Of a stretch of 8,254 nucleotides of DNA, positions 680 to 8,254 are shown piece by piece. A model generated the notes under the pieces. The model saw only the letters and a list, made by a program, of their open reading frames with translations, did not search any database and was not told the origin of the DNA. Position 1 is the stretch's first letter; every line of letters begins with the position of its first letter. The DNA comes from a virus. Lineage: Duplodnaviria; Heunggongvirae; Uroviricota; Caudoviricetes. Location: the IMG/VR virus record IMGVR_UViG_2565956626_000015. One strand, 5' to 3'. A program made the translations under genes and the position numbers.

Positions 680-1057
680 TTAGACGTGCTTGGAGAACAG
701 GTAGCGTGCCATCACTAAAACAATGCCAAAGACTTCAGCGAGGGTTCCCCCCATAAATAGGTTTATAACGAAATCACTAAAATGGAGCAGTTTTGCTCCA
801 ATAAGGACAAAAATCCCATTCATAACTAATAGCTGGCCTATCAGAATGCCGATAAACCACCGAGCAAACATTTTTTTCAGTTTTGTGTCTGTTTTTAAAT
901 CTTTTGTTTTTGCACGCTGATGGGCTTTGGCTGGATCCTCATCATTTAGATGTGTGAGGGTTTTTGCTGATGGTGATGAGCCAGAGGCTGGTTCACCTCT
1001 GGCTTGTCTTGCCGCTTGCTTTAGTTTTTCAGATATAGCGTAAGATCTAGACGTCAT
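680..1057 (-). CDS. Small membrane protein, 125 aa: charged Lys/Pro/Ala-rich cytoplasmic N-terminal tail plus two predicted TM helices
   Basis: Hydrophobic segments WFIGILIGQLLVMNGIFVLIGA and INLFMGGTLAEVFGIVLVMARYLF follow a roughly 60-aa hydrophilic N-terminus. Its ATG lies 3 nt after the stop of the upstream peptidase gene (TGA-GTA-ATG), indicating translational coupling. Confidence 0.7.
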   Translation of the reverse strand: MTSRSYAISEKLKQAARQARGEPASGSSPSAKTLTHLNDEDPAKAHQRAKTKDLKTDTKLKKMFARWFIGILIGQLLVMNGIFVLIGAKLLHFSDFVINLFMGGTLAEVFGIVLVMARYLFSKHV

Positions 1058-2862: not shown

Positions 2863-4968
2863 TTATTGAGCTTCTTTTTGTGATGCCTGTGCGACTCTGG
2901 TGAGCGATTGTGTGACCGTACTGATCGCTCTGTCATATGCTGTGCTACCTTTTGGTGTATTTGCCAGACGTAACAAGGCATTTCGTATAACAGGGCTTTC
3001 GTATGCCTTCGCTGCTCCGCCTACGGCACCAGCAGCAGGAACAACAAACGCAGCTGTTTTTAGCATCCCCGCTAATACTGCTGCGTTTATGATGCCACCA
3101 CCAACTAACAATCCATAAAGCTGCTGACCATTTAAGTTTTGAACGTTCGCTTTTGCCGCGTGTCTTGTATCGTTGAGGTATTTAATAACGCCGTCCAGTT
3201 CCTTTCCATGTACGCCTTTAAAGAAAGTTGCTGATTGCTTCCTGTTCCGGTGTAACGCATTAATAAACTTCTCAACACTGATATTTCCAGACGGATCAGT
3301 CGCCTTATCTACAGCATTCTGAACTATGGCTGCTCGTGCGTTTTGCCTACCATTGTCATCCAGAAGCCTGTAAAGCTGAGAACGTTCTGATGGGCTTTGG
3401 CTAAAAACGAGTTTTGTTACATCCTCAGGCGTGGCCTTGCCGCTGGCTATTGCCTTTTGAACGCGCGTTCTTCCCATCATGTCATTGAATTTAGACCATG
3501 AGCGATCAACCCTTGCCATATTAATGGCTTCGTCTGCTCCAAGATTTTTGGCTACGGCTTTTTTCATATCCGCCGTATATGCCTTGTAGATAATATCGCT
3601 GGCTTTCTGGAGCGTATCTTTATCAACAGTGTCAGATGACGCCATAAATCGCTTTCGAAGATCGGTTCTGTTTTCCCTCGCCAGACGCAGGTCATTTGGT
3701 CCGCTGGTGATATCGTCTTTAAATTGCTGCAAGACTTTTACCGCGGCTCTATCCTGAGATTTGCCCGGGCGGCTTAACACGGCAATCTGATTGTCGATAG
3801 CTTTTACCGTGTTTGAGAGATCGACAGGGGTATCCCCCATAGCGTCAATTATGCGGTTATATCGCTTTCCTGCTGCCTCAATGAATTTTTGTTGCCCTTT
3901 AGTCGCAGATTCATAAAGCTGTTTATCAGAAATGCCACCCAGACCATCGCTAAATGTTCTGACTAAATTTTCTCGTGCTTGTTGTTGATTCAGCCGATTC
4001 TTACCGGTTCCAAAAAAAGGAACTCTTTCGCCTAATGTCTGAGCCTGACTCTGCATAAAGGTTTTATCTTTCAGCATGTCACTGGTCATTAACGGCAGAT
4101 TTCTTTCCGATGCAAAGTCGACAGCAGCCTTTGCTTCAGGCGACATATCACCACGAACAGCCCTCGAAACCGCACTCGCTGTATTTTCCAGCCCCTTACC
4201 AATACCACCAATGCCAGCAGAAATTACCGTTTGTAACGGATCAATATCTTCTCCACCAGCAAGGCTGGTGGCTCCCTGTAGTGCTAAATCTGTAGCTGCT
4301 GATTTTCCTATGGCACCAAGCACCGTTCCAGCCCTGCCCGCTGGTGTAAACGCCAACGCATTAGCAAGAAACGAAGTCAGGTCTTGCGGTGATAAACCCG
4401 GTTTGTTTAGGGCATAATCACCTGATGGCAGAGAAACGATAGTATTCCCCTTCTCATCCTGCCTTAATGTCGCCCCCATTCCCTGGAGAATCTTTTCCTG
4501 AGACGCGTCAGAGCCGAAAAGTTGAGACCATCCAGCCTTTAGGGCATCCATGCTTAGTGAGTTCAATTCTGGGGCAGAGGCGACATTTTGCAGTCTCTCC
4601 ATCTCTGGAGTCATTCGGCTTTCGCCTGTTATAGCATCCCGCATCGCAGCCCCAAGACTGGCTCCCTGTTCTGCTGAACGCTCAAGCCCCTCTCTTTGCT
4701 GAGTAGCTAACTTTGCATACCCTGACGCAAGAGAATTATCAGATGATGTATGTTGAATATTTTGAGTTGCTGATTGGGATCGGTCTATTTCATTCGTTGA
4801 TGGTAGTGGATAGGCAGCATAAAAAGCCTGCTTAGCCTGCTCTACACTTTCTCCGGCTTGCGGGGCCACGACTTCATTGAAGTATTGCTCCTGAGCCTGC
4901 GCTTTTTGTTCTGGTGCTAACGCCTGATACTGTGGAGAGGCGATAACATCTTTCCATGCTTTAGCCAT
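2863..4968 (-). CDS. Phage internal/ejection protein-like, 701 aa (P22 gp16-like by position and composition)
   Basis: Last gene of a four-gene coupled operon. Gln/Ala-rich with a Gly/Ala-rich hydrophobic C-terminal segment (LVGGGIINAAVLAGMLKTAAFVVPAAGAVGGAAKA). Its start overlaps the upstream stop (TAATG). Confidence 0.5.
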   Translation of the reverse strand: MAKAWKDVIASPQYQALAPEQKAQAQEQYFNEVVAPQAGESVEQAKQAFYAAYPLPSTNEIDRSQSATQNIQHTSSDNSLASGYAKLATQQREGLERSAEQGASLGAAMRDAITGESRMTPEMERLQNVASAPELNSLSMDALKAGWSQLFGSDASQEKILQGMGATLRQDEKGNTIVSLPSGDYALNKPGLSPQDLTSFLANALAFTPAGRAGTVLGAIGKSAATDLALQGATSLAGGEDIDPLQTVISAGIGGIGKGLENTASAVSRAVRGDMSPEAKAAVDFASERNLPLMTSDMLKDKTFMQSQAQTLGERVPFFGTGKNRLNQQQARENLVRTFSDGLGGISDKQLYESATKGQQKFIEAAGKRYNRIIDAMGDTPVDLSNTVKAIDNQIAVLSRPGKSQDRAAVKVLQQFKDDITSGPNDLRLARENRTDLRKRFMASSDTVDKDTLQKASDIIYKAYTADMKKAVAKNLGADEAINMARVDRSWSKFNDMMGRTRVQKAIASGKATPEDVTKLVFSQSPSERSQLYRLLDDNGRQNARAAIVQNAVDKATDPSGNISVEKFINALHRNRKQSATFFKGVHGKELDGVIKYLNDTRHAAKANVQNLNGQQLYGLLVGGGIINAAVLAGMLKTAAFVVPAAGAVGGAAKAYESPVIRNALLRLANTPKGSTAYDRAISTVTQSLTRVAQASQKEAQ

Positions 4969-6389
4969 TAATCACCCCATAGTGAAGAAAAGTTACTGCT
5001 GGCTGCTGGCTGTGATACCTGCTCAGATTGCGGCAATGTCTGCGACGAAGAAGAAGTTCCTCTGTCAACTGCTGAAATAACCCGCAAAGCATCATAAGCT
5101 CGACCAGAAGCAGCTTTCAGCGAATTGAACTGGTTTTCCATCTTCCGGCGCTTGGTATCAATGGTTTTTGTGGAGTCGCCAGGCTGAGGGAAATACATTT
5201 GATAATATTTTGACATTTCAGCAGGTACGATAGCTGCCCCTGTTTCCTGACGGAGTATTGCCATTATTGCGTCATTAGCATTAACAACGTATTGCTGCTC
5301 TGTTGGGCTGAGCGTTAAGTTAGCCAGCGTCCCATTACCCAAAGCATTATTAATGACCGCCACTCGCTGTGGGCTAAGCTGGTCTTTCAGTGTATCTATT
5401 GAATCAAGAGCATCCCTAACCCTGTATGCAAATCCAGCAGCTTTTTTAGCCCCTTCTGGCGACTTTTCCATGATCTTTTGGGCTGTTGGCAAAGCTATTG
5501 GACGAAATCCATCTCCAGATATTGGCTGGTTTAGTTTTCCCTGCTCTTCACTTCCGTCTGTGTAGTATTTTGTGACAGTGCCATCATCGTTTTCTCTAAC
5601 ACTCATTAATTTTTTGGCGTTTGTATTAATTCCAGCCGCTGCCGCAAATGCCGCCGCCCCCTCTGGATCCGCCTTTAACATTTGAGCGTACTGATTGTAA
5701 TTCTGCATTGCTGCTGTTGGTGCATATGCTGACGTTAACGCATTTGCTCGGCTAATATCCTGCCCTCTCGCCTGAAGTGCTTCGCCAGCCTGATTGCTGC
5801 GGATTGTCTCTGCCAACTTGCCACGCTCAATATCCCGACCTTCCATTTGATCTTTGATATCGAAATACTTCTCATGACCGAGAGAAAACAGTGCCATACT
5901 ACCAGCAAGCCGCTGGAACCACTGTGGATCATTAACATGCATTTCGGCAACAGACTCAGGAGAAATTCCCAAGCGACGCATTTCATCTTCGTTATCTGCT
6001 ATGAATTTTCCAAATGCCCCAGTTCCGAGCGAAGATGCGATTTGAGCACTAGTCGCAAGATGACCAATAGAATTTCTCTGGTCGTCATCAATAAAGCCCA
6101 TCCCTTTCTGAACGCTTTCAAATTCTTCTGGATACTCAGAAATAAGACTGCGCATTTTGTTTCTGTCTCCAGACTCAAAAGCCCCGGCATATGCTTTCTG
6201 AAACTCTGCTTTACGCTGTTGTTGACGTGCCTGCTGATTAATCTCAGCAACGCCTCTTAGCCCCTGTAGCGCCATTAAACCTACGTTTGGCTGCTGCTGA
6301 TACTGCACAGGCTGAGGAACGGAAGAACGAGGAGCATTATCATTTTGCGGTGCCATGCTAGGCAGCCCGCCAAGTTGCCATGTCGCCAT
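4968..6389 (-). CDS. Phage internal/ejection protein-like, 473 aa (P22 gp20-like by size and position)
   Basis: Overlaps both neighbours by TAATG start/stop. Gln-rich and largely helical in composition. Size is close to P22 gp20 as I recall it (about 471 aa). Confidence 0.5.
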   Translation of the reverse strand: MATWQLGGLPSMAPQNDNAPRSSVPQPVQYQQQPNVGLMALQGLRGVAEINQQARQQQRKAEFQKAYAGAFESGDRNKMRSLISEYPEEFESVQKGMGFIDDDQRNSIGHLATSAQIASSLGTGAFGKFIADNEDEMRRLGISPESVAEMHVNDPQWFQRLAGSMALFSLGHEKYFDIKDQMEGRDIERGKLAETIRSNQAGEALQARGQDISRANALTSAYAPTAAMQNYNQYAQMLKADPEGAAAFAAAAGINTNAKKLMSVRENDDGTVTKYYTDGSEEQGKLNQPISGDGFRPIALPTAQKIMEKSPEGAKKAAGFAYRVRDALDSIDTLKDQLSPQRVAVINNALGNGTLANLTLSPTEQQYVVNANDAIMAILRQETGAAIVPAEMSKYYQMYFPQPGDSTKTIDTKRRKMENQFNSLKAASGRAYDALRVISAVDRGTSSSSQTLPQSEQVSQPAASSNFSSLWGD

Positions 6390-7066
6390 TAGAATCCAAG
6401 CCCCCCAACAAGACCAATAAGCCCACCACCAATAGCGCCGGCCGCAGTACCTATTCCAGGAACAACGGAACCAAGTTGCGCACCCGCTAAAGCGCCTGAT
6501 GCTGCCCCACCAATACCACGCGCAAGACTGGATGGCTGCTGCGCCTGACCTGCACGAATAGCGCCAAGCCCCTGCAAGAGTTGCCCGGTATTATTGGCGT
6601 AGTTTTGCCCTGCTGTTGCCTGCCCTGATGCCGCATTCATCCCGACATTTAGCAGGTTTCCATAATTTTGCATTTGCCCACTAAGCCAATTGTTATAAAG
6701 CATGGGCGCAATGGAAGATAACTGGTTACTGGTAGCTGTTGAGCCAAGCCCCCCGGTAGCTTCTGCTGAGACAAGGTTCTGATAACGGGCCTGATCTGCC
6801 TGTGTTTTATATAAACCAGAACCAAAGAAATCATTCGCGGCTTTATTCTGCCCTTCCAGAGTCATCAGTCCTTGTAGTTGTTGTAAAGCAGGCAATCCGA
6901 CTTCTGCATACGGCTTGAGATTATTCATCACCGTATTCCACTGCTCGCGCTGCAAATCAATTGCCTGCTGCTGGGCCTTCGCCTGAGCTTTAGAGGCACC
7001 ACCATCACCGCCTTTTTCGTATACGGCACGATTGAGATGTTTATGAGCTATATGGGTAATTAACAT
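6389..7066 (-). CDS. Phage internal/ejection protein-like, 225 aa (P22 gp7-like by size and position), with Gly-zipper C-terminus
   Basis: C-terminus GGAASGALAGAQLGSVVPGIGTAAGAIGGGLIGLVGGLGF is a glycine-zipper-like membrane-active segment. Its start overlaps the stop of the upstream gene (ATGTTAA). Confidence 0.5.
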   Translation of the reverse strand: MLITHIAHKHLNRAVYEKGGDGGASKAQAKAQQQAIDLQREQWNTVMNNLKPYAEVGLPALQQLQGLMTLEGQNKAANDFFGSGLYKTQADQARYQNLVSAEATGGLGSTATSNQLSSIAPMLYNNWLSGQMQNYGNLLNVGMNAASGQATAGQNYANNTGQLLQGLGAIRAGQAQQPSSLARGIGGAASGALAGAQLGSVVPGIGTAAGAIGGGLIGLVGGLGF

Positions 7067-7521
7067 TCGCTGAGTTCCTTATATTGTTGCCGAGTTAACT
7101 GATAAAGCGTTACGCCAACTGGCTTACCACATCTGATATATGCATCGGCCAGGTGACCAACACGGGTAGCGCCAAGCAAACGGATAATTGCCCGTCCGTA
7201 TTTGGTGGTGTCAGGAACCATGGTAATGCTGTTAAGGAATGGTGAGTTTTCGAGAAGCCATTTGCAGAATAATCGATGCCCTTGCAGTGCATATTCACCA
7301 CGGAATCCGGGGTCGTACACCGCATGGCATTCAACAACGCTATGCCAGAAGTTACGCACTTCATGAACGCCAGCCAGCACTAATCCTTCGTAGATGCCGA
7401 GATATACCGCATCAGGCTTGATGTAGTACGTGTGCCCCGGCTCAACAATATTTTCGGTATTGCCTGGCTCGTTAAGAAAGGCCTGTAATCGCACAGGGTT
7501 ATCAATAAATTTTAGTTCCAT
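7060..7521 (-). CDS. Hypothetical protein, 153 aa; positional equivalent of P22 gene 14, or alternatively an SOS-controlled antirepressor-like protein
   Basis: ORF is translationally coupled to the downstream 225-aa gene and starts 16 bp after the Arc-like ORF. No recognisable catalytic motif. Confidence 0.6.
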   Translation of the reverse strand: MELKFIDNPVRLQAFLNEPGNTENIVEPGHTYYIKPDAVYLGIYEGLVLAGVHEVRNFWHSVVECHAVYDPGFRGEYALQGHRLFCKWLLENSPFLNSITMVPDTTKYGRAIIRLLGATRVGHLADAYIRCGKPVGVTLYQLTRQQYKELSEC

Positions 7522-7537
7522 GCGATGCCATCCATTT

Positions 7538-7699
7538 TCACATACAGCCTGCCAGCGCCTTATCTATTAACCCTCGTGCAATTTCATGCAGAGTTGGCGC
7601 TACTCCAATTCCTGATTTTTTACGCTGCTCTTCCTGAATTTTCTTTATCGCTTCCATTTGCTTCTCACTTATCAATACCGGCTTTACTGAAATAGCCAT
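7538..7699 (-). CDS. Small Arc/CopG-type RHH DNA-binding protein, 53 aa (MAISVKPVLISEKQMEAIKKIQEEQRKKSGIGVAPTLHEIARGLIDKALAGCM)
   Basis: Not in the supplied ORF track (below its length cutoff); found by hand translation of the minus strand. Shine-Dalgarno AAGGGGG lies 4 nt before the ATG. The beta-strand/helix/G-x-x/helix layout is typical of RHH repressors. Confidence 0.55.
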   Translation of the reverse strand: MAISVKPVLISEKQMEAIKKIQEEQRKKSGIGVAPTLHEIARGLIDKALAGCM

Positions 7700-7712
7700 A
7701 ACGCCCCCTTAG

Positions 7713-7738
7713 AACTGTATAAAACAACAGTTATTATA
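7713..7738 (-). promoter_or_regulatory. LexA (SOS) box-like site CTGT-N8-ACAG abutting a perfect -10 TATAAT, upstream of the Arc-like ORF
   Basis: AACTGTATAAAACAACAGTT (7713-7732) matches the CTGT-N8-ACAG core of the E. coli LexA box consensus TACTGTATATATATACAGTA. The minus-strand TATAAT (complement of 7733-7738) is adjacent, so the box would cover the transcription start. Confidence 0.5.
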
Positions 7739-7790
7739 GTTTCACAAATCGCAATATTCATCATCGTAATTGCAAAATATGAAACAAATA

Positions 7791-7827
7791 GCACAAAAAA
7801 ATGCCACCGCTCAGTAGCTGGTGGCAT
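7791..7827 (-). terminator. Intrinsic terminator (minus strand) upstream of the Arc-like promoter
   Basis: Stem ATGCCACCGCT (7801-7811) pairs with AGC(t)GGTGGCAT (7816-7827) around loop CAGT with one bulge. On the minus strand it is followed by TTTTTTGTGC (complement of 7791-7800). Confidence 0.6.
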
Positions 7828-8020
7828 CGTTCTGTGTGTCAGGTTTTGACAGGTTTTTTATGGACTCTAAAAACTATATTTATGGTGTCGCATTACTCTT
7901 CACGGCAGGCGCTTTTCAGTTCTGCCCTTGCTTCTGGCTCCATTGGTAATTTGATTCGCGATCAGCTATGCGGATGGTTTGCTGAACAGGCATAACAACT
8001 TCTCAGAGGCTGTTTTCTGA

Positions 8021-8039
8021 ACTACGAAAATTTCGTAGT
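8021..8039. promoter_or_regulatory. Perfect 19-bp palindrome ACTACGAAA-A-TTTCGTAGT, operator-like
   Basis: Two 9-bp arms are exact reverse complements. It shares TACGAAA/TTTCGTA half-sites with the second palindrome at 8077-8097. Confidence 0.45.
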
Positions 8040-8076: not shown

Positions 8077-8097
8077 TTTTACGAAAGTCTCGTAAAA
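8077..8097. promoter_or_regulatory. Inverted repeat TTTTACGA-aagtc-TCGTAAAA, operator-like
   Basis: Two 8-bp arms are exact reverse complements around a 5-bp spacer, with the same TACGAAA half-site family as 8021-8039. Confidence 0.4.
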
Positions 8098-8147
8098 CAC
8101 TCTCTGATGCCAGCCAGGTGTTGTGCGCATCAATTCAGTCACATTGT

Positions 8148-8188
8148 GTTGGTTCAAAATACCGTGTTGTTGGTTCAGTGTTGGTTCA
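8148..8188 (-). repeat. Iteron array, right end: GTTGGTTCA at 8148-8156, 8169-8177, 8180-8188
   Basis: Three exact copies of the reverse-complement iteron. Copy 8180-8188 mirrors left copy 67-75 exactly; the other two are shifted by about one helical turn relative to the left arm. Confidence 0.8.
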
Positions 8189-8220
8189 ATAAAAAGAATA
8201 AAATCCTTATAAAACAATAC

Positions 8221-8254
8221 TCTTTACAAATTGAACCAACTGAACCAACTGAAC
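8221..8254. repeat. Right terminal inverted repeat, perfect 34-bp partner of 1-34
   Basis: 8221-8254 (TCTTTACAAATTGAACCAACTGAACCAACTGAAC) is the reverse complement of 1-34, with two contiguous TGAACCAAC units (8232-8240, 8241-8249) plus a partial TGAAC. Confidence 0.9.

Follow-up and report, generated by a model that had tools for sequence, protein, structure and literature searches.

Why would a palindrome of the kind bound by the SOS repressor LexA lie at the very start of an operon for phage DNA ejection proteins, and on what sort of element? The question arises from an 8,254-nt stretch of viral DNA (Caudoviricetes; IMG/VR record IMGVR_UViG_2565956626_000015), referred to here as the window, the minus strand of which carries a compact operon headed by the gene of a 53-aa protein. 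The initial annotation assigned palindrome and operon to a prophage module under probable SOS control. We find the element to be a phage-inducible chromosomal island (PICI) of the type of EcCIMP1, the 19,963-bp island between proA and yagU of Escherichia coli MP1 described by Pick, Stadel and Raivio in 2025 (PMC11773190), and not a prophage. The palindrome itself is, in our assessment, likely to be a functional LexA operator, specific to some lineages, on what may be called the virion-protein operon of the island. Boxes of this kind and islands of this type are already known; an SOS box on the operon of an EcCIMP1-type island has not been reported previously, and the EcCIMP1 paper makes no mention of LexA anywhere (PMC11773190).

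The predicted LexA (SOS) box is a 20-mer, AACTGTATAAAACAACAGTT, at 7713-7732 (no strand assigned), built around the 16-mer core CTGTATAAAACAACAG at 7715-7730, a CTGT-N8-ACAG dyad with AT-rich spacer exactly as first described. The perfect arms are 6 nt long (AACTGT at 7713-7718, ACAGTT at 7727-7732) and thus extend the site to the full 20-mer. Along the minus strand one reads in turn TATAAT (7738-7733), AACTGTTGTTTTATACAGTT (7732-7713), ctAAGGGGGcgtt and the ATG at 7699, with the consequence that the box directly adjoins a perfect -10 hexamer on the coding strand of the small gene, as the initial annotation had it, and stops 13 nt short of the start codon. Weight-matrix scoring, proposed there as a check, was done with a symmetrised matrix from 29 E. 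coli LexA sites attributed to Lewis 1994 and Fernandez de Henestrosa 2000, only the dinD site among them having been compared with real sequence. With 21.06 bits the box is mid-range for these reference sites (12.8-27.0 bits) and exceeds 17 of the 29; it has a heterology index (HI) of 4.3, re-derived from this matrix and not from the original Lewis table; its match reaches LexA consensus positions beyond the CTG/CAG triplets. As a positive control, the SOS box of dinD (27.0 bits) was the sole other site of at least 11 bits in 33 kb of L002, one of about 100 loci with the 53-aa gene (L numbers) gathered from species-representative genomes and metagenomes. In Salmonella, functional SOS boxes show HI values of ∼1.5-13 at distances of 8-70 bp from the ATG, those strongly dependent on LexA tending to overlap the start site (PMC8072944), and the LexA-binding class of E. 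coli K-12 peaks at an HI of ∼7.3, compared with 22.3 for background (PMC12527982). Score and position agree with these published scales, and the box is predicted to be a LexA site of high quality, placed where LexA would block the promoter.

Might an AT-rich 5' leader simply have formed the dyad by chance, without function? The CTGT-N8-ACAG motif occurs once in the window, and the bare core is found at least once in 12 of 200 window shuffles, which lends this idea some support. The full-site score speaks against it, for 21.06 bits were attained neither in 2000 first-order Markov simulations of the window nor in 200,000 simulations of a 60-nt promoter-proximal stretch with a composition like that of intergenic DNA. 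Within the coding sequence of gp20, a further LexA-like site, CCCTGTATGCAAATCCAGCA at 5420-5439, reaches 16.0 bits (P ∼0.015 per window by simulation); strain ABU 83972 has it, the gp20 allele of L002/AR_0085 does not. Being intragenic and missing from that allele, it was set aside as an SOS operator and is probably fortuitous.

The promoter to which the box belongs has the TATAAT hexamer at 7733-7738 (minus strand), unvarying among 24 distinct promoters of the Escherichia-type clade and kept in nearly all genera of a 16-genus alignment. Its putative -35 element, ATGAAT at 7756-7761 (minus strand; 17-nt spacer), is weak, matching TTGACA at three of six positions, which is why a consensus promoter scan called no promoter at the operon start. 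The Shine-Dalgarno sequence AAGGGGG (7704-7710, minus strand) stands 4 nt before the ATG. Upstream, a terminator scan placed an intrinsic terminator with hairpin and U7 tract at 7795-7836 (minus strand; arms 7801-7808 and 7820-7827), with a folding energy of -26.2 kcal/mol (z -6.2) not equalled by any of 200 shuffles; a similar hairpin followed by a T-run is found in other genera. By its predicted fold and place, the terminator insulates the operon promoter from transcription of the upstream primase and origin region, and with so strong a terminator just upstream the operon needs a promoter of its own. Between terminator and -10 element, and adjoining the latter, lies a dyad at 7739-7785 (no strand assigned) with 17-nt arms, GTTTCACAAATCGCAAT and ATTGCAAAATATGAAAC, 76% complementary across a 13-nt gap. 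It holds TTTCA and TTGCAAT motifs that are conserved blocks in the 16-genus alignment, and may be an operator for the small protein of the operon, for the island regulator AlpA or for a helper factor.

Conservation within the Escherichia-type clade (53-aa protein identity 85-100%; the 24 distinct promoters came from 40 loci) is distributed as expected from selection on the LexA-read bases. Variation spares all eight bases of CTGT/ACAG as well as the whole -10 hexamer (six positions), but affects four spacer positions out of eight and, among the 54 remaining promoter-proximal columns, 34 (Fisher p=9e-4, uncorrected for phylogeny). In L039 and L045, the variant CTGTATCGTTATACAG has four spacer bases and the flanks changed with every critical base intact; in the sister sequences from Leclercia, the box has decayed to TTGTATCGATATAGAG. 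The leader of the Escherichia sequences is ∼8 nt longer, and their right half-site stands apart from the Shine-Dalgarno sequence.

Outside that clade, the full CTG-N10-CAG is present at the same offset from the -10 hexamer in four lineages, with spacers that are all different: Pantoea sp. 1.19 and Lonsdalea (19.8 bits), P. coffeiphila (20.5 bits) and Photorhabdus (18.0 bits), the last with a 53-aa family protein only 46% identical. On the tree of the 53-aa protein, itself weak, the four fall separately, and the full box thus appears to recur in at least three to four lineages, gained or kept repeatedly. The base preceding CAG is the consensus A in three of these N10 lineages and always T in the relatives with a shorter N9 form. 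Together with the right half that in Escherichia is independent of the Shine-Dalgarno sequence, this suggests that, in lineages possessing the box, LexA binding has been under selection. The same observations bear on chance formation. A left half and AT-rich spacer that are inherited, and a one-base indel sufficing to interconvert N9 and N10, would make it easier; critical bases invariant amid a variable background, a box shared by several lineages with different spacers, and the separate right half in Escherichia are poorly accounted for by it, and we consider an accidental, functionless dyad very improbable.

A number of points weigh against LexA control and are gathered here. In most relatives the promoter reads TATAAT-NN-CTGTATAAATATCAGG, that is CTG-N9-CAG, scoring below 9 bits and with its CAG inside the Shine-Dalgarno sequence. 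This form, ∼40 nt upstream of the small gene in L005-L009, L011, L014, L017, L018 and many metagenome loci, is carried by Klebsiella, Raoultella, Serratia, Rahnella, Cedecea, Chimaeribacter and some Pantoea. LexA reportedly measures the spacing of its half-sites strictly (Zhang, Pigli and Rice 2010), so that the N9 form, one base shorter, should not bind it, and its occurrence in most genera implies that LexA control is dispensable for the promoter. Even the N9 lineages keep the left half, (C/T)TGTAT. Retained there without a usable right half, it suggests that part of the E. coli box may serve a start-site or leader constraint or another protein, and as an inheritance of the whole family it leaves less independent information in the E. 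coli site. Much of the variation within the Escherichia clade is supplied by two divergent sequences, and the matrix itself depends on reference sites of which one, dinD, was compared with real sequence. The weak -35 element may mean that the promoter needs an activator, in which case release of LexA alone may give little expression; and alpA, the master regulator gene of EcCIMP1, responds to the helper phage and not to DNA damage itself (PMC11773190).

The latter two points are also those that would be expected if the promoter were activator-dependent, driven by AlpA or a late factor of the helper, with LexA binding to little consequence and the box merely trimming basal leakage. Conserved upstream motifs likewise suggest another regulator, EcCIMP1 induction requires helper and AlpA and not damage alone (PMC11773190), and many relatives function without a box. 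Yet a perfect -10 hexamer, and critical bases that persist despite considerable divergence, favour selection acting on LexA binding as such, and the repeated gain or retention of the box in separate lineages speaks against a trivial role. On balance, we regard LexA binding of little consequence as quite unlikely.

The palindrome could, alternatively, be the operator of the first gene product, in autoregulation, or of some other regulator of island or helper, its likeness to a LexA box being incidental. What is known of the 53-aa protein (7538-7699, minus strand) makes this worth considering. The protein has no match in Pfam, PHROGs or PADLOC, and a PDB profile search with a 13-sequence profile gave none at E≤10. 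In its AlphaFold2 monomer model (pLDDT 85.5), residues 1-11 are extended and two helices span 12-28 and 37-52; the top Foldseek matches are of ribbon-helix-helix (RHH) type (PutA RHH DNA-binding domain, TCP domain, VapB12), with E of 1-5 and TM of ∼0.5, hence not significant. A ribbon-helix-helix fold is plausible from the model, and so is the Arc-like label given initially, which finds weak support in predicted fold and RHH-type top matches (E ∼1) and none in sequence profiles. Proteins of this kind commonly autoregulate; the N-terminal strand VKPVL, which putatively contacts DNA, hardly varies in the family, so that its operator should be conserved too, and (C/T)TGTAT after the -10 hexamer is kept family-wide even where LexA cannot bind. 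The full dyad, however, is not kept alongside the strand, for N9 and N10 spacing, spacer and right half differ across the family, and the TTTCA/TTGCAAT repeats and dyad at 7739-7785, directly upstream, offer a better family-wide candidate. Moreover, the Escherichia variants retain exactly the eight bases read by LexA as the spacer drifts, and the match covers LexA consensus positions outside the triplets. An operator for a protein other than LexA is therefore considered unlikely, and recognition by LexA is retained as the preferred reading. The 53-aa family is small and restricted to Enterobacterales; it is encoded in none of 50,697 phage records, and small gene and promoter are together present in 482 complete E. 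coli genomes, which puts the number of such genomes with EcCIMP1-type islands in the hundreds.

What, then, would LexA control? The operon continues on the minus strand with a 153-aa DUF2824 (P22 gp14-type) head-morphogenesis protein (7060-7521; PF11039, E=2.5e-60; phrog_651, E=7e-66), a 225-aa P22 gp7-type DNA ejection protein (6389-7066; PF25688 P22_gp7, E=6.6e-73), a 473-aa P22 gp20-type ejection protein (4968-6389; PF16928 Inj_translocase, E=3.8e-58) and, as last gene, a 701-aa gp16-type DNA transfer protein (2863-4968; phrog_770, E=2.4e-163). The annotation of phage ST104 labels the homologous junction genes 16 and 20, and a PDB sequence search with the DUF2824 protein returned only noise. 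The five genes are packed, with a 16-nt gap after the small gene and overlapping stops and starts thereafter, for which a single transcript is the simplest reading. Co-expression of the ejection (E) protein genes upon DNA damage, suggested in the initial annotation, is thus supported as regards gene layout downstream of the boxed promoter; its SOS dependence is a natural prediction from that layout. The DUF2824 gene shares 88-98% nucleotide identity with counterparts in phages Louie, Kapi1 and 720R6, Kapi1 being among its closest phage matches, and the gp14-gp16 block as a whole is mosaic at the nucleotide level when compared with known P22-like phages, which match only 5-13% of it, at 86-96% identity. 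Louie, a genuine P22-like phage that served as control, has the same gp14-gp7-gp20-gp16 block directly after its tail needle gene, DUF2824 lying between needle gene and gp7, and there the block comes with no small gene, no promoter and no LexA-matrix site above 7.5 bits. In this comparison the box is specific to the satellite.

These identities do not support the functions proposed at first. The 153-aa protein, taken to form a regulatory pair with the 53-aa protein, is a gp14 homologue, and elsewhere the small gene precedes other cargo: genes other than DUF2824 follow it at all 16 non-Escherichia genome loci and gp20 follows it directly in some E. coli islands, just as phages carry DUF2824 without the RHH gene. 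As each occurs without the other, an RHH-DUF2824 toxin-antitoxin pair was likewise discarded. An antirepressor or induction-coupling function finds no link in an operon of RHH-like protein and gp14, gp7, gp20 and gp16 homologues; it is ruled out by the Pfam and PHROG identities, the antA/antB-family gene of the island being located in the distant early operon.

The nature of the element follows from its flanks, which consist of a PICI primase with origin on one side and accessory genes on the other, where the initial annotation had assumed a prophage. Complete E. coli genomes have the block in an island of ∼19-20 kb, at tRNA-Thr or between yicC and dinD, with the order integrase, AlpA-type helix-turn-helix regulator, antA/antB family, DUF4222, ash, small genes, TOPRIM/DUF927 primase, intergenic region, 53-aa gene, ejection genes, accessory genes and PerC (RefSeq annotation of L001, L002 and L104). 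Integrase, AlpA-type regulator, primase followed by origin, a size of ∼12-20 kb, and a tRNA or specific attachment site are all hallmarks of Gram-negative PICIs. Genes for capsid, terminase, tail and lysis are absent from the island. PICIs are also expected to lack structural genes of phages (PMC6092414); genes of gp14, gp7, gp20 and gp16 type are present in the island. A prophage region akin to P22 immI (arc/mnt/ant) was ruled out by the PICI flanks together with the absence of the 53-aa protein from phage records. Where the primase gene ends, a place at which an origin would be expected nearby, GTTGGTTCA iterons occupy 8146-8249, with direct copies at 8148, 8169 and 8180, inverted copies at 8231-8249 and an AT-rich stretch between; this region is probably the replication origin of the island. 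Palindromes are additionally found at 8021-8039 and 8077-8097.

EcCIMP1 in strain MP1 resembles the window in having int, alpA, antA/B, ash, TOPRIM/DUF927 primase, small gene, DUF2824, DNA-transfer genes and PerC; its 53-aa protein and box are identical, and its promoter region is identical at 291 of 293 nt. The window differs in its 701-aa gp16 allele and in other accessory genes. The EcCIMP1 paper reports no structural genes and proposes a packaging role for EcCIMP1_017-019, in whose place we find homologues of P22 gp14, gp7, gp20 and gp16 by Pfam and PHROGs; what the genes downstream of the primase do, and how they are regulated, it leaves explicitly open (PMC11773190). Excision and transduction of EcCIMP1 required Kapi1, a temperate phage of P22-like type, and the island adds superinfection immunity and represses the virulence genes of the locus of enterocyte effacement (PMC11773190). 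Kapi1 is mitomycin-inducible, and its induction is recA-dependent (PMC8787464). A weak CTG-N10-CAG (11.3-14.3 bits) was noticed just 3' of int, ∼405 nt upstream of alpA (L104, 19262-19281; L001, 29125-29144). It is contained within the alpA-lux reporter, which mitomycin C did not induce in a non-lysogen (PMC11773190). Lying inside a reporter that is uninduced without helper, the site is probably no SOS operator, and it was dismissed as one for alpA.

How the proposed operator might work can be outlined. In the undamaged cell, a LexA dimer on 7713-7732, covering the -10 edge and reaching across the expected start, would block open complex formation or clearance by RNA polymerase, and the upstream terminator would stop read-in from the primase and origin region. 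On DNA damage, activated RecA would promote self-cleavage of LexA, by the same signal that would induce a P22-like helper prophage. The derepressed operon would then deliver the 53-aa RHH-like protein, followed by the gp14, gp7, gp20 and gp16 homologues, such that satellite ejection proteins would be present while helper procapsids assemble. P22 E-proteins are incorporated during procapsid assembly. With excision and replication of the island under the separate control of helper-induced AlpA, two inputs would be integrated, as in the SaPIs, pathogenicity islands found in Staphylococcus aureus.

Is the cargo behind the promoter peculiar to E. coli islands? In other genera (L004-L019, L059-L100), the slot behind primase, small gene and promoter is filled by DNA-delivery virion proteins that are not P22 E-proteins. 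Podovirus internal virion proteins, including SLT-transglycosylase proteins of ∼900 aa, are found in Klebsiella, Leclercia, Pectobacterium, Cedecea and Raoultella; tape-measure proteins, often after a 108-aa ORF, in Pantoea, Chimaeribacter, Lonsdalea and Serratia; and a set of tape-measure protein with lysin, tail-fibre-like protein and baseplate hub in the L088 group, Rahnella and L070. Examples of such cargo genes 3' of the 53-aa gene are L012:6498-9635, L007:6457-9075, L009:6498-9905 and L011:6153-7244. The exceptions are a ∼190-240-aa HEAGH-motif protein and proteins of unidentified kind in Photorhabdus. Complete tail or head modules are absent from these loci, the primase of which is 44-83% identical across the non-Escherichia loci. 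An anti-phage defence hotspot was ruled out, there being no PADLOC matches in the slot and PHROG/Pfam matches to virion proteins instead. Cargo downstream of the LexA-boxed promoter also varies among E. coli islands (L020 and L021 from strains OkiPb01696 and W60; L046, L051, L055 and L056). Some of these islands lack gp14 and gp7 and proceed directly to a 488-aa gp20 allele; others have a 223-aa HEAGH-motif protein (a putative metalloprotease with no PHROG match) and then dinD.

By gene content, this suggests a satellite family equipped with DNA-delivery proteins matched to the helper. In the open-access literature we found no satellites with tape-measure or ejection cargo beyond EcCIMP1, which we put forward as a lead and not as a claim of priority. 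On the most far-reaching reading, EcCIMP1-like satellites of at least 12 genera of Enterobacterales could carry interchangeable delivery cassettes, each matched to a helper morphotype and consisting of P22 E-proteins, of podovirus internal virion proteins together with a transglycosylase, of tape-measure proteins or of baseplate hubs. These would take the place that capsid-remodelling or packaging genes have in other PICIs, behind an RHH-led promoter that is repeatedly LexA-boxed, so as to load ejection proteins upon SOS induction. We offer this wider scenario tentatively, as a real possibility that still falls somewhat short of even chances. If true, hijacking by these satellites would be aimed at genome delivery and not at capsid size or packaging, and it may serve to bypass superinfection exclusion or to spoil the helper progeny.

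The accessory region of the window contains further genes of potential relevance. On the minus strand, 1061-1549 encodes a 162-aa metallopeptidase of M78/ImmA-IrrE type with a PADLOC match to CapP (E=5e-25), followed by a 125-aa membrane protein (680-1057, minus strand). CapP represents a family of regulator proteases activated by DNA damage, and by this relationship the CapP-like gene could be a second DNA-damage-responsive module; no helix-turn-helix partner was identified adjacent to it. On the plus strand, likewise beyond gp16, are a 147-aa protein (220-663) with an RHH-looking N-terminus, VAFRIPSELQDEF, and a 139-aa multi-pass membrane protein (2425-2844), neither of which gave an informative family match.

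The importance of the predicted operator lies in a concrete and cheaply testable regulatory model for the EcCIMP1 operon, for which the published MP1/Kapi1 system is at hand. If the model holds, SOS-inducing antibiotics would switch on satellite genes directly, independent of the helper. The identity of the ejection homologues and the cargo of other genera moreover shift the question from how the island is packaged to why a satellite should bring its own DNA-delivery proteins, and the cargo slot, if it reflects a genuine satellite strategy, may matter more than the box.

Comparison with known systems places the window between chromosomal SOS genes and mobile elements. The dinJ-yafQ operon is LexA-boxed and has an RHH protein as its first gene, similar to the small RHH-first operon here; the second gene in the window is, however, a phage gp14 homologue, and since it and the RHH gene are each found without the other, a toxin-antitoxin interpretation by analogy is not supported. 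Canonical E. coli SOS operators over the -10/+1 region (umuDC, sulA, yebG, polB, dinD) share with the window box the CTGT-N8-ACAG dyad with AT-rich spacer, the score range, the position between -10 element and ATG and the predicted block of polymerase. The window box differs in belonging to a mobile satellite instead of a chromosomal repair gene, in being predicted only and in occurring in some lineages only. As regards mobile elements, tum of coliphage 186 and the Gifsy antirepressors (PMC3121763) have a LexA box on the promoter and couple to SOS without repressor cleavage; there the box governs an antirepressor, whereas in the window it fronts an RHH-like protein and ejection proteins, and the island antA/antB gene is in another operon.

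The closest parallel is with operon I of the SaPIs. According to the account in PMC3152322, which cites Ubeda 2007, this operon of six genes, among them the SaPI terS as well as cp1 and cp2 for capsid size, is LexA-regulated, and the same account has the SaPI cycle controlled by derepression of Stl via a helper protein. In both cases, a morphogenesis-related operon of a satellite is located downstream of the replication module; it is (SaPIs) or would be (window) repressed directly by host LexA, with excision and replication of the element answering to a helper-specific signal. There is no sequence homology between the two; the SaPI case is experimentally proven, that of the window is known from sequence alone; and the cargo consists of terS and capsid-size genes in the one and of gp14, gp7, gp20 and gp16 ejection homologues in the other, in a Gram-negative host with an E. 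coli-type box. If LexA does control the operon, the EcCIMP1-type islands would provide the first Gram-negative parallel to the LexA-controlled SaPI operon that we found in our literature search.

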